Of a stretch of 47,939 nt of DNA, positions 34,101 through 36,794 are shown in pieces. The notes under the pieces are model-generated. The model was not told the DNA's origin, ran no database searches, and saw nothing but the letters and a program-made list of their open reading frames with translations. A program made the translations under genes and the position numbers. This stretch comes from Candidatus Limnocylindrales bacterium. Lineage in GTDB: Bacteria; Chloroflexota; Limnocylindria; Limnocylindrales; CSP1-4. Where the stretch lies: positions 1-47,939 of the forward strand of contig DASSRG010000088.1 in the NCBI GenBank assembly GCA_035701885.1, read 5' to 3'. Positions within the stretch are counted from its first letter, which is position 1, and each line of letters opens with the position of its first letter.

Positions 34101-36794
34101 TCAGTGGTCGTGGGCCTGTTCCGACCCGAACTGGCCGTACGCGTTCTGCGGCGGCGCGCCGTGGCCGTGGCCATGTCCGTTGCCGTTGCCGTTGCCGTTG
34201 CCGTTGCCGTTCGCGCCGACGAGCGAGGCGGGGAGCACGGGCAGCAGGCGGCTCGAGTCGAGCAGCCGTCCCTCGGCCCGGGCCCGCTCCGCCCAGTCGC
34301 GCTCGCGGCGGATGTACGACATCTCGGTCTCGCGCTCGACCGCGGCGAGCGCGAGGAGGTCGATCATCGGCTCCTCGCGCGACGTGTGGCTGAGCTCGAA
34401 CTGGTCGCTGTCGCGGACCGCGTCGTACGGGCACGCGTCGACGCAGATGCCGCACAGGATGCAGCGGCTCTCGTCGACCTCGTACTTCTGCAGGACGCGC
34501 GGCTTGGGCATCAGCGCCCCCGTGGGGCACGTCTCGGCGCACCGGCCGCAGGACACACAGGGCGTGTCGTTGAGGCTCATGTCGAGCGGCGTCGTCACGA
34601 GGGTGTCGAAGCCGATCCGCATGAAGTCGTAGCACGCGGCCCCCACGACCTCGGCGCACACGTTGGCGCACCGGCCGCAATCGATGCACCGCGCGGGCTC
34701 GCGGAGGATGAACGCGTGGCTGTCGTCGCGGACGTAGTCGTGGTTGTAGCCGGTGAACCGGTTCTCGGTCACCGAGCGGTACCCCGCGCCCTGGTGGAAC
34801 TGCGGCTCCAGCGTCTTGAGCGTCGTCCCGTACTCGATGCCGAGCCTGCGCAGATCGCAGAACCCGATCGCCTCGCACGTGCACTGCAGACACCGGGTGG
34901 ACTCGGCGACCGCCTCGTCGCGCGTGTACGGGATCTCGTACTCGATGTAGTTGTGGTTCCGCGCCTCGGCCTCGAGCGCCTTGAGCCGGTAGCGCGGCTC
35001 CTTGATCTCGCCGGTGAACGGGACGATCGACAGGAACTCCGGCTGCGGCTCGGCAAGCGTCTGGCGGGTCCGGATCGTCGACAGGTCGTTGCCCTTGAGG
35101 TACGCATCGACCGCGTAGGCCGCGCGCCGGCCCTCGGCGATCGCCTGGACCACGGTCGCGGCCCCGATCCGCACGTCCCCGGTGCCGAACACGCCCGGCC
35201 GGCCGGTCTCGAACGTCACCGCGTCGGCCTTGAGGCGCTTGTTCTTCGTCGCCTCGACGCCCTCGTTGCCGGCGCCGAGCCAGTCGAGCTCCGGCCCCTG
35301 GCCGATCGCAAGCAGCACCCGGTCGCACGGGATCACGAACTCCGTCCCGGGCGCTGGCTCCGGGCGGCGGCGACCCGAGGCGTCGGGCTCGCCCAGCTGC
35401 ATCCGGATGAACTCGACGCCGGTGACCTTGCCCGTCTTCTCGTCGGTGATGACCCGCGTCGGACCGGCCTGGAAGATCGCGGTGACGCCTTCCTCGATCG
35501 CCTCGTGGACCTCGCCCGCCGCGGGCATGTCCTTCATGTCGCGGCGATAGACGAGCGTGACCTCCTTCGCGCCCTGGCGCACCGAGGTTCGCACGCAGTC
35601 CATCGAGGTGAACCCGCCGCCGACGACGACGACGCGGCTGCCGGCGTGGCCGGGATAGGTCAGGCCGAGGGTCGCGGTGCGCAGGTACTCGAGGCCGTCG
35701 AGCACCCCGTCCGCGTCCTCGCCCGGGATGCCCAGCTTGTTCGTGTCGTAGCAGCCGATCGCGACGACGACGCTGTCGAAGCCGCGGTTCTGGAGGTCGT
35801 CCAGCGTGAAGTCGCGGCCCAGGCCCTGGTTGCACACGATCTTGCCGCCCAGGCGCTCGACCGACTCGTACTCGGCCTCGAGGACCTCGACCTTCGGCAG
35901 ACGGTACTGCGGGATGCCGTAGCGGAGCATGCCTCCGGGGGCGGGGTCGCGCTCGAAGACCGTGACGTCGTGACCGGCGAGCAGGAGGTAGTACGCCGCG
36001 GCCATGCCGGTCGGCCCGGAGCCGATCACCGCGGCCTTGCGGCCGGACGGCGCCTGGCGCTCGAACGGGACCGGCGGGTCGATGCCCTCGTCGAGCATCG
36101 CCTTGAGCACCTGGTCGCCCGCGTAGCGGTGGCTGTCGCGGATCGCGATCGCCTCGTCCACCTCGTCGCGTCGGCAGTGCTCCTCGCACGGGGCGGGGCA
36201 CACGCGACCGAGCACGCTGGGGAACGGGATCGTGCGCTTGAAGATCCGGGTCGACTCGCGCCAGTTGGCCTCGGCGTTGGCCTTGAGGAAGCCCGGGATG
36301 TCGATGTGGCTCGGGCACTTGTTCTGGCACGGCGGGAGGCAGTACGCGTTGTGGTCCGAGAAGATCAGCTCGAGGTTCGTCTTCCGGAGCCGGCGCAGCT
36401 CGTCGGTCTGTGTCCGGACGACCATGCCCGCCTCGGCCTCGCGCGAGCACGAGATCGGTGGCTGGTCCTCGCCCTCGACCTCGCACACGCACATCCGGCA
36501 CGCGCCGAAGCCCGGCAGCTTGGGCTCGTAGCAGAGCGTCGGGATCTCGATCCCGTTGTCGCGGCAGACCTCGAGGATCGTCTGGCCCTCGAAGCCCTCG
36601 ACGACGCGCCCGTCCACCTCGATCCGGATGAGCGGCGTGCTCTGCGGCCGCTGCGGGCTCTGGGTCGTGATCAGCCGCTCGGCGAGGGTGTCCTCGATGG
36701 GCGTGATCGTGTCCAGGACGGACGGGTTGTCGGGACGCGGATCGCGCCGCTCGAGGGGCGCGTCCGTGTCGGGGCGAACGATGAGGTCGGCCAT
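34101..36794 (-). CDS. NuoG-like Fe-S subunit with an internal GltD-type flavoprotein module and a NuoI C-terminal half; no molybdopterin-like domain
   Basis: 897 aa from MADLIVRP (ATG 36794, TGATG overlap with nuoF). 2Fe-2S [23 protein letters not shown]. GltD motifs [39 protein letters not shown] and [13 protein letters not shown]. NuoG motifs [34 protein letters not shown] and [16 protein letters not shown]. NuoI-type [17 protein letters not shown]..FEL. The tail reads (GN)6(GH)3. Confidence 0.85.
   Translation of the reverse strand: [897 protein letters not shown]
34161..34212. repeat. Hexanucleotide microsatellite inside the CDS, encoding the [19 protein letters not shown] tail
   Basis: Plus strand reads gtggcc gtggcc atgtcc, then (gttgcc) about 5 times. 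Confidence 0.9.

Follow-up and report, generated by a model that had tools for sequence, protein, structure and literature searches.

A predicted StnABC-like cassette inside a split nuoI gene of a Limnocylindrales complex I operon, with a putative NADPH-type electron-input subunit

A 47,939-nucleotide stretch of contig DASSRG010000088.1 (positions 1 to 47,939; hereafter the window), from assembly GCA_035701885.1 of a Candidatus Limnocylindrales bacterium (Chloroflexota, Limnocylindria), carries on its minus strand a complex I operon with the gene order nuoA, B, C, D, H, I_N-E', F', G'-I_C, nuoJ, K, L, M, N. Three open reading frames (ORFs) lie between nuoH and nuoJ. The first, I_N-E' (38131-38793; 220 amino acids), joins the N-terminal half of NuoI to a remnant of NuoE/StnA, as judged from PDB, Pfam and TIGR01971 matches. 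The second, F' (36794-38122; 442 amino acids), is a trimmed B subunit of the Bfu type, homologous to NuoF and StnB (Pfam, PDB). The third, G' (34101-36794; 897 amino acids, starting MADLIVRP), is a StnC/NfnA-like protein that continues into the C-terminal half of NuoI (ORF, Pfam, PDB). No intact nuoI was found in the operon. Its layout reads as an 11-subunit-type order (ABCDHIJKLMN) with a stnA-stnB-stnC-like cassette placed inside nuoI. The stop codon of F' overlaps the start codon of G' by one nucleotide (TGATG), and the I_N-E'/F' junction is built likewise; because of these overlaps, the sequence indicates that both junctions are translationally coupled.

Pfam searches of G' placed Fer2_4 at residues 56-130 (E 5.5e-21), the first 17 of the 40 positions of NADH-G_4Fe-4S_3 at residues 137-153, Fer4_20 at residues 152-231 (E 6.7e-17), Pyr_redox_2 at residues 253-555 (E 6.9e-29), a weak Fer4_Nqo3 match at residues 696-761, accompanied by Fer4_7 and related matches, and Fer4 at residues 771-793. 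An earlier note, written from the DNA and its translations without database searches, had proposed a NuoG-type 2Fe-2S domain, a complete GltD/NfnB-type module with flavin adenine dinucleotide (FAD) and second dinucleotide folds, NuoG-type motifs and the C-terminal half of NuoI, in that order. Pfam and the alignments bear out both the order and the completeness of the flavoprotein module, every quoted motif is present, and the four profiles suggested as a check (Fer2_4, Fer4_20, Pyr_redox_2 and NADH-G_4Fe-4S_3, the last over its 17 positions) all matched. The same note had also described the protein as devoid of a molybdopterin-like domain, and neither Molybdopterin nor Molybdop_Fe4S4 was matched in G' by Pfam; the protein terminates 110 residues past its ferredoxin-like domain. 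The JGI annotation of G' as a formate dehydrogenase was ruled out, there being no molybdopterin domain.

The 2Fe-2S domain (residues 55-135; 36390-36632) carries the invariant cysteines C88, C99, C102 and C116 and is equivalent to N1b/C4. It is followed by the first half of an N5-type motif (H148-x3-C152), which runs into the GltD Fe-S segment (C156, C160P; C199, C203, C207; H222) at 36090-36389, and by the FAD Rossmann fold, in which R298 corresponds to StnC R239, together with the NAD(P)H Rossmann fold (35085-36089). After the flavoprotein part comes a second Cys motif, RC635LQC638TC640EAIGFC646DLRR (34827-34904), invariant in 78 sequences and conserved in Limnocylindria, Thermoleophilia and Stn-like proteins. 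Next is a HydA/FdhA-type 2x[4Fe-4S] ferredoxin-like domain (C703/706/709/713 and C746/749/752/756; 34500-34712), which Pfam and the alignment to StnC and 9bov_A equate with StnC clusters C3 and C2. The NuoI C-terminal half (YEVDESRC778ILC781GIC784VDAC788PYDAV; 34347-34499) stands where StnC has the 4Fe-4S motif of its molybdopterin domain. All the cysteines and histidines just named are candidate ligands, and each is identical to the window in at least 99% of 78 Limnocylindria sequences. The conservation profile of the C-terminal tail (34101-34346) shows a moderately conserved helical stretch and then a non-conserved low-complexity end and the stop codon. That low-complexity tail (34104-34180) is variable in length and not conserved among relatives. 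An 18-residue insertion after the N5-type motif (34755-34826, G' residues 657-680) is confined to the Limnocylindria lineage, where it is well conserved.

The two Cys motifs that bracket the flavoprotein part suggest how G' was assembled. H148-x3-C152 and C640-x5-C646-D-L-R would be the two halves of a single N5-type motif (canonically H-x3-C-x2-C-x5-C-x-L-Q), interrupted by about 487 residues, and the GltD module would have been inserted so that C156-x3-C160-P forms its beginning and its own displaced start, RC635-L-Q-C638, its end. The motif after the flavoprotein part had been read as an all-Cys N5, which is probably half right: its last two ligands are of N5 type, while the rest appears to be the displaced start of a GltD motif (RCLxC). 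The motifs HxxxCxxxCxxxCP and CxxCxCxxxxC have been described in StnC/NsoC, the former as the product of GltD integration into a NuoG-like protein (PMC7483475), and the probable assignment of ligands to the individual clusters of G' is consistent with that proposal. H222 (36129-36131) occupies the position of StnC K170, a residue that provides the FAD-proximal cluster with its non-Cys ligand and is reported to be strictly conserved in StnC sequences (PMC10482914). At this position we found His in at least 99% of the 78 Limnocylindria sequences and in 22/22 Thermoleophilia, and Lys in 17 Stn-like representatives. The ligand is thus Lys170 in StnC, Glu in NfnB and His in both complex-I-linked lineages. 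His222 may shift the potential of this cluster to suit delivery to quinone instead of to a bifurcating site.

Both dinucleotide folds of G' show only minor substitutions in Limnocylindria and align with Stn-like proteins, the second one with GGGNTAMD..YRR..EMPA. This second fold has the GxGxxA/G pattern followed by a basic YRR at the end of beta-2 that characterizes an NADPH-type site. The longer segment GGGxT..D..RT..R.GA.EV..YRR...MPA is common to G' and to StnC, NfnA, NfnL, GltS beta and DPD, the closest solved relatives, all of which are NADPH enzymes according to their PDB titles and papers. NADPH, proposed earlier as a donor, is therefore plausible, and the YRR and associated basic residues would set the specificity of G'; the main texts of the Stn and Nfn-Bfu structure papers list no NADPH-specificity residues. 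Column homogeneity, sum(p^2), is 0.94-0.98 in the Fe-S segments, highest in the ferredoxin-like domain (0.98), and 0.85 in the flavoprotein part. An AlphaFold2 (AF2) monomer of G', built from a 26-sequence alignment, was poor overall, with a mean predicted local distance difference test score (pLDDT) of 56. Only its flavoprotein part, modelled with confidence (pLDDT ~80-90), and its 2Fe-2S part were usable. The flavoprotein domain of this model matches NfnI-L, NfnB, GltS beta and DPD at TMt ~0.75, and the top three structures in the fold search were the same NfnA/StnC structures that headed the sequence search.

That G' ends in half a NuoI had already been noticed, and profile TIGR01971 and TYKY/NuoI chains in the PDB (E ~1e-12) agree with it; what had been missed is the other half, fused to the NuoE remnant in I_N-E', two genes upstream of G'. 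Residues 1-81 of I_N-E' (38551-38793), which include CETCFQCAQACP, are the NuoI N-terminal half, and residues 9-73 match the corresponding half of TYKY/NuoI with E 1e-11 (PDB). The NuoI model TIGR01971, 121 positions long, is shared between the two proteins, with positions 1-63 on I_N-E' and positions 71-116 on G' residues 766-811. When residues 1-81 of I_N-E' were joined in silico to residues 765-836 of G', the chimera aligned in one stretch to residues 23-147 of the full-length TYKY/NuoI chain 7ar7_I (E 1.7e-24), with a 2-residue gap at the junction. Because the chimera aligns end to end and the TIGR01971 pieces are complementary, we read I_N and I_C as matching halves of a single NuoI that is divided within the loop separating its two CxxCxxCxxxCP motifs. 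In an ordinary NuoI these motifs, which form N6a/N6b, share one polypeptide with NuoI-specific N- and C-terminal segments; here they are distributed over two chains, and the two-piece NuoI has probably retained its function. On the G' side, the sequences part after CPTGAL, where Stn-like proteins go on to the CxxCxxxC of the molybdopterin domain whereas G' goes on to the NuoI half-motif. Polyferredoxins were the top phmmer matches for the stretch leading into that half-motif.

The rest of I_N-E' is reduced. Residues 111-190 (38224-38463) are the N-terminal helical part of NuoE/StnA, and the PDB matches of residues 117-187 to NuoE, StnA, HydC, NfnC and 9bov_C are confined to that part. The thioredoxin-like 2Fe-2S domain is absent from E' according to Pfam, in which the 2Fe-2S_thioredx profile is covered at positions 2-63 of 145 only. 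Residues 82-110, between the two parts (38464-38550, GRFHVHWGPPETYGERREESAIRRSGRP), are near-invariant across 76 species, above the NuoE-like part, and matched no known family; they may form an interface that holds the NuoI halves or the module together.

F', the subunit encoded between the two halves, had been taken for a canonical NuoF, which it does not appear to be. Complex1_51K and NADH_4Fe-4S are its only Pfam domains, and its best PDB matches are Bfu B subunits (9bov_B, NfnB, HydB and StnB, 1e-100 to 5e-103) as against 1e-63 to 1e-78 for NuoF. It aligns to the Bfu B core alone (residues ~114-526), and neither the N-terminal thioredoxin-like 2Fe-2S domain nor the C-terminal 2x[4Fe-4S] domain was found in it by Pfam or PDB alignment. 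Compared with three solved Bfu B subunits and the Thermoleophilia B subunit, the active-site loop of F' reads NGYGADPA where the homologues have N(A/G)DEGDPG, and NNVET reads [N/H/Q]NVQT, with N216 being N/H/Q. The residues that contact or stack on flavin mononucleotide (FMN) vary as well (Y202 is Y/H), and the H...CPAGVC segment is kept. In the N3/B1-type motif, C347-G-K-[T/S]350-I-P-C353 (37064-37084), none of 77 sequences has a Cys at the middle position (45 Thr, 31 Ser); speculatively, the resulting three-Cys cluster could be a 3Fe-4S or an O/N-ligated 4Fe-4S cluster. A [D/E]-H-E is conserved after the fourth ligand of this cluster (C393-E-H395-E, 36935-36946).

The remainder of the operon supplies the genes of a membrane arm and a Q-module (nuoA, B, C, D, H and J-N). 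Named from translation and coordinates are nuoA (43054-42683) and nuoB (42695-41934); nuoC (41930-41382), nuoD (41379-40141), nuoH (40135-38798), nuoJ (34091-33555) and nuoK (33540-33223) were identified with Pfam; and nuoL (33216-31162), nuoM (31165-29600) and nuoN (29589-28093) come from a reading of the translations only. The NuoB translation has CC...C...C Cys motifs, read as the N2 ligands. The window has a G+C content of 72% and numerous spurious ORFs. NuoH is 445 residues long versus 369-375 in the Thermoleophilia relatives, and the alignment breaks at about residues 313-366, pointing to a loop insertion or additional helices.

The arrangement is conserved well beyond the window. Our Limnocylindria set consisted of the best 80 of at least 550 stretches encoding a relative of G' in a scan of species-representative genomes. 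Gene order was the same in 80/80 of these loci as far as the flank reaches, 65 of them containing the whole nuoA-to-nuoN series. Relatives of G' in protein databases number in the thousands, and the best 120 are 82-97% identical, about 880 residues long and derived from metagenome-assembled genomes (MAGs) of 'Candidatus Limnocylindrales' or Chloroflexota; the hit counts suggest that Limnocylindria are common in environmental metagenomes. No other protein of the operon is as well conserved as G', whose mean identity to the window protein is 86.5% in 65-80 species, against 84% for NuoK, 82% for NuoD, 75% for I_N-E' and 71% for F'. An assembly or frameshift artefact was ruled out by the recurrence of the arrangement in 80 species loci, where the flank permits, and in a second phylum.

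A search of representative sequences revealed a gap between the G' clade (at least 64% identity) and the Stn-like proteins (1000-1260 residues, at most 46% identity). The exception was P0145 (816 residues, 42% identity), which also ends in a NuoI C-terminal half. Its lineage belongs to Thermoleophilia (Actinomycetota) and comprises at least 120 clusters, all from MAGs. Four Thermoleophilia loci on metagenome or MAG contigs (L081-L084; proteins P0145 and P0273-P0389) carry the same split-nuoI operon order, at 36-52% identity to Limnocylindria across the operon. Here the A subunit retains the 2Fe-2S cysteines and the B subunit, 620-638 residues long, is a complete Bfu B with canonical NGDEGDPG, CGKCxPC, an N-terminal 2Fe-2S and a C-terminal 2x4Fe-4S domain. 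The BfuBC bifurcating-core domains, incomplete in the window proteins, are thus all present in these relatives, whose operon might be a candidate membrane-bound 'Nuo-Nfn-Bfu' that is truly confurcating. In neighbour-joining trees computed on 673 columns, with the NuoI part excluded, G' proteins of Limnocylindria and Thermoleophilia formed one split against 17 Stn-like proteins in 200/200 bootstraps, for which a single origin of the hybrid would be the simplest reading. The G' proteins of one Thermoleophilia subclade (P0145, P0271, P0273, P0274, P0276 and P0278) diverge in their second Rossmann fold (aligned with window G' residues 378-432), which reads GDGFAA... and has SPC/SAS/CHS in place of YRR, while the FAD fold and the B subunit are canonical. 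Since F' is degenerate in Limnocylindria and the NADPH fold of G' is divergent in this subclade, the reciprocal pattern suggests two alternative entry sites, with Limnocylindria specialized on the GltD (NADPH-type) site.

Taken together, we consider it probable that G' takes the place of NuoG as the subunit for electron input in a hybrid respiratory complex I, whose N-module derives from a Stn/Nfn-Bfu (StnABC-type) cassette inside nuoI and which passes electrons from NADPH to quinone. Most likely the enzyme would be a non-bifurcating NADPH(/NADH):quinone complex I. In Stn, electrons travel along NADPH-FAD-C7-C6-C5-C4-C3-B1-FMN, with C2-C1 as a side branch, and StnC by itself has NADPH:viologen activity (PMC10482914). 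In the hybrid, NADPH would deliver hydride to the FAD of the GltD-like module, from which electrons would pass singly to the two GltD 4Fe-4S clusters, the proximal one presumably held by three cysteines (C160/C199/C203) and His222. The N5-like cluster and the 2Fe-2S cluster would carry them to the ferredoxin-like pair, StnC C3 and then C2. The C3-C2-C1 branch, a dead end in soluble Stn, would thereby become the exit, C1 being replaced by the NuoI clusters N6a/N6b. A 21-residue polyferredoxin-like linker would lead from the second ferredoxin-like cluster to the NuoI half-motif, and the reconstituted N6a/N6b would hand electrons to N2 in NuoB, from where they would reach quinone and power proton pumping. 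F' and E' would tether the module to the NuoI N-terminal half, and F' would at most add an auxiliary NADH/FMN entry through its three-Cys cluster.

We prefer NADPH as the fuel because G' is the most conserved protein, its NADPH site is near-invariant and F' is degenerate. Several points weigh against this choice. Purifying selection acts on F', which retains GEET, NNVxT and the Gly-rich loop for FMN and may thus be a fully functional NADH site; the choice of NADPH over NADH is drawn from homology and from the basic YRR after the second Rossmann beta-strand; the AF2 model is unreliable for residues 634-897 (pLDDT <50) and hence silent on the geometry from C2 to N6; and every carrier found is an uncultured MAG. 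The state of F' bears directly on a dual-donor enzyme, in which NADH would be oxidized at the FMN of F' and NADPH at the FAD of G', with a common Fe-S wire to quinone and a built-in transhydrogenase. Retention of GRGGxG(F/Y)P, an invariant GEET, K72/W73 and NNVxT under purifying selection would fit such an enzyme, as would the Thermoleophilia relatives, most of which keep a canonical B subunit next to an intact G' NADPH motif, and the NADPH:NAD+ oxidoreduction catalysed by Stn (PMC10482914). However, conservation of F' (71%) falls below that of G' (86.5%), the DE-x-(D/E)PG loop has become GYGADPA in F' although all compared homologues keep it, the first Asn of NNV and the stacking aromatics vary, and the N3-type cluster is one Cys short, which leaves two working donor sites an unlikely, if still credible, arrangement. 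The opposite assignment, an ordinary NADH:quinone complex I in which F' is catalytic and the GltD-like module a structural or regulatory relic, has precedents in canonical NuoG, which also carries a non-catalytic relic (its molybdopterin-like domain), in the FdhF-like domain of Stn, an inactive remnant (PMC10482914), and in the Thermoleophilia subclade with its divergent second Rossmann fold. Yet the flavoprotein part of G' is conserved above any core Nuo subunit, and its FAD and NAD(P)H motifs, R298 and the proximal-cluster ligands are near-unchanged in 78 sequences, F' being the degenerate partner; we regard a relic as improbable.

Two further readings concern what the module does and where it resides. 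Bifurcating or confurcating chemistry, which the earlier note had raised, would make the complex a Nuo-Bfu-type enzyme that co-oxidizes NADPH, or NADH and reduced ferredoxin, at a Bfu flavobicluster site for quinone reduction and extra pumping. The module does descend from the Bfu family, a Nuo-Bfu concept has been proposed (PMC9304861), and the Thermoleophilia sister lineage has a complete BfuBC core (A 2Fe-2S, B N-terminal 2Fe-2S and C-terminal 2x4Fe-4S). In the window and in the Limnocylindria alignments, however, E' is without its thioredoxin-like 2Fe-2S domain and F' without its N- and C-terminal cluster domains, no ferredoxin-binding domain being left. Deletion of the StnA cluster (A1) alone abolishes both bifurcation directions in StnABC (PMC10482914). 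As A1, B2, B3 and B4 are all absent, bifurcation in the Limnocylindria lineage is unlikely, and a bifurcating complex of this type very much so. A soluble Stn-like enzyme merely encoded inside the nuo operon would agree with the solubility of the closest characterized relatives. It is nevertheless scarcely conceivable here, as the first and the last protein of the cassette each carry, covalently attached, one of two complementary NuoI halves, the operon has no intact nuoI, its genes appear translationally coupled, and synteny is kept in the 80 loci where the flank allows and in a second phylum. A physical link with complex I, as proposed in the earlier note, is supported by the fusion to half of NuoI.

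In a broader form, which we advance tentatively, Limnocylindria and many Thermoleophilia would respire with a proton-pumping complex I that natively oxidizes NADPH. Its N-module would have been acquired independently of NuoEFG, as a whole stnABC-like cassette inside nuoI, and the [4Fe-4S] ferredoxin subunit, split by this event, would reassemble from two fusion proteins. The nucleotide sites would have degenerated reciprocally: Limnocylindria kept NADPH/FAD while the FMN site decayed, and the Thermoleophilia subclade kept NADH/FMN and the bifurcating core while the NADPH fold diverged, so that the lineages together would form a natural gradation with a bifurcating Nuo-Nfn-Bfu enzyme at one end and a simple NADPH dehydrogenase at the other.

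As a rule, complex I is regarded as an NADH enzyme, the known exceptions being ferredoxin in photosynthetic NDH-1 and F420H2 in Fpo. If the proposed function of G' is correct, NADPH would join the respiratory donors that pump protons, with a bearing on NADPH balance in uncultured Chloroflexota and Actinomycetota. It would also represent a second, independent way to attach an electron-input module to the 11-subunit core, so that the long-debated modular origin of the N-module could be compared between two solutions. The divided NuoI would be a natural case in which the insertion of three genes has distributed a 2x[4Fe-4S] ferredoxin fold over two polypeptides, and the 'dead-end' C2/C1 branch of Stn would become a functional exit, which would help to explain why the branch exists. 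There are consequences for annotation as well. In public databases G' is labelled either 'FAD-dependent oxidoreductase' or 'formate dehydrogenase major subunit', and on the proteins of this operon none of the NCBIfam models for NuoF, NuoG and NuoI reaches its cut-off (TIGR01959 for NuoF, 334 bits on F' versus a cut-off of 559; TIGR01973 for NuoG, 89.5 bits on G' versus 470). It is probable that NuoE, F, G and I go unrecognized in automated metabolic reconstructions of these MAGs, which would then wrongly report an incomplete complex or one of the 11-subunit type.

Elsewhere in the window, a Mrp/Mnh-type antiporter cluster is encoded on the minus strand at 15850-22534. One of its proteins is MnhA-like and carries MbhD/MbhE domains (20066-22534); another is an unusual fusion of MnhG with two universal-stress-protein domains (15850-17085). 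The region 3-14717 is a neighbourhood for cell-envelope glycolipid or glycosylation, with a family-2 glycosyltransferase, a TMEM260-like O-mannosyltransferase, two lipid A-type acyltransferase homologues and a myo-inositol-1-phosphate synthase, together with a 1831-residue ORF with PMT domains at 3816-9311. This gene set may serve the synthesis of phosphatidylinositol-mannoside-type lipids.

Among known systems, stand-alone NfnB/NfnL, SudA, GltD and the N-terminal half of DPD share with the G' module the FAD/NADPH fold, two 4Fe-4S clusters and one non-Cys ligand. The module matches 5jca_L, 4ylf_B and 6s6s_E at TMt ~0.75 with an rmsd of ~4 Angstrom, and the sequence matches to these reach 225-264 bits. 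NfnB, NfnL and GltD are stand-alone subunits of ~470 residues or domains of other enzymes, whereas the G' module is embedded in an Fe-S protein of the NuoG type, its first Fe-S motif has moved to its end, and its non-Cys ligand is a His where NfnB has Glu and StnC Lys.

Much closer are the BfuA subunits (StnC, NfnA, NsoC) of the soluble, electron-bifurcating Stn/Nfn-Bfu transhydrogenases. Over residues 55-790, G' matches 9bov_A (Caldicellulosiruptor NfnA) with E 3.6e-166, 8oh5_C (Sporomusa ovata StnC) with E 8e-142 and 9n5u_A (Thermococcus sibiricus NfnA) with E 3.2e-141. Stand-alone NfnB/NfnL, GltD and DPD score far below (136-264 bits), and NuoG, HydA and FdhA match in the Fe-S parts only. 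Stn-like proteins are ~36-46% identical to G' over the same residues, and the solved chains 35-39% identical in the fold alignment. StnC consists of a 2Fe-2S domain (1-101), a GltD insert (102-565), NuoG-type clusters and an inactive FdhF-like domain (683-1172) (PMC10482914). StnABC (8OH5), the enzymes of Caldicellulosiruptor saccharolyticus (9BOV) and Thermococcus sibiricus (9N5U), and NsoC of Thermococcus litoralis have the same domain order as G', namely 2Fe-2S, HxxxCxxxCxxxCP, GltD/NfnL-type FAD/NADPH, CxxCxCx(n)C and 2x[4Fe-4S], and the gene order A(NuoE-like)-B(NuoF-like)-C is common to them and to the cassette. G' thus has the N-terminal 2Fe-2S domain, the bracketed GltD module and the 2x[4Fe-4S] domain of a BfuA subunit. 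A GltD module inside a NuoG-like protein, presented in the earlier note as a NuoG variant of its own kind, is hence an architecture already known as StnC/NsoC/NfnA from soluble Bfu-family transhydrogenases (PMC10482914, PMC7483475). That note had also named, as grounds for doubt, an occurrence of the architecture in a soluble enzyme subunit, which is indeed the case, combined with a coincidental placement in the operon, which the NuoI fusion contradicts. Unlike StnC/NfnA, G' has no FdhF/molybdopterin-like domain and no C1, the 4Fe-4S motif being replaced by the NuoI C-terminal half, and the strictly conserved K170 is exchanged for His. Its partners also differ from those of Stn: the A subunit has no 2Fe-2S cluster and is fused to the NuoI N-terminal half, the B subunit lacks the N- and C-terminal cluster domains and one B1 Cys, and the genes stand inside a nuo operon rather than forming a stand-alone soluble enzyme, with no bifurcation expected.

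What appears to be new is the context, a cassette in the split nuoI of a conserved complex I operon in two phyla. No description of a split-nuoI/Stn-cassette complex I was found in the searchable literature, the coverage of which is incomplete. Searches of this literature for Limnocylindria, Ellin6529 or Thermoleophilia with complex I or nuoEFG returned nothing, those for NfnB with nuo and for Bfu with NuoI returned no paper on this enzyme, and the Nfn-Bfu structure papers do not mention a membrane-bound form. The nearest concept is 'Nuo-Bfu', outlined in passages of Schut et al. 2022 (PMC9304861) as predicted 14-subunit complex I-like clusters with BfuABC in place of NuoEFG in Geobacter, Deferribacteres, Planctomycetes and Nitrospirae. 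It shares with the present operon a Bfu-family module in the middle of a nuo operon as the electron input of a proton-pumping quinone reductase; in contrast, those passages describe neither a GltD/NADPH module nor a split NuoI, and the phyla differ. The BfuB definition given there requires a ferredoxin-type domain (PMC9304861), and since F' of Limnocylindria is without it, it would not have been picked up under that definition.

With canonical 14-subunit complex I, the hybrid shares the logic of the peripheral arm (flavin, Fe-S chain, N6a/N6b, N2 and quinone), an N1b-type 2Fe-2S cluster, an N4-type cluster, a NuoF-family subunit and an apparently complete set of nuoA-D, H and J-N. It differs in having NuoI on two polypeptides and, of NuoE, only the helical N-terminal part, without N1a. 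Canonical NuoG combines a contiguous N5 motif with a large C-terminal domain; G' has the N1b- and N4-type motifs, whereas its N5 motif is interrupted by the inserted flavoprotein and the large C-terminal domain is missing. The hybrid also has, in G', a second flavin with an NADPH-type site. In canonical complex I, as known from the Thermus structures, electrons leave through N5 to N6a. Canonical NuoG has lost the second ferredoxin-like cluster. In the hybrid it is this second cluster, not N5, that would be the likely exit to NuoI, and because electrons would leave by the C2 branch instead of passing from N5 to N6a, the docking geometry of the module should differ from that of canonical complex I.

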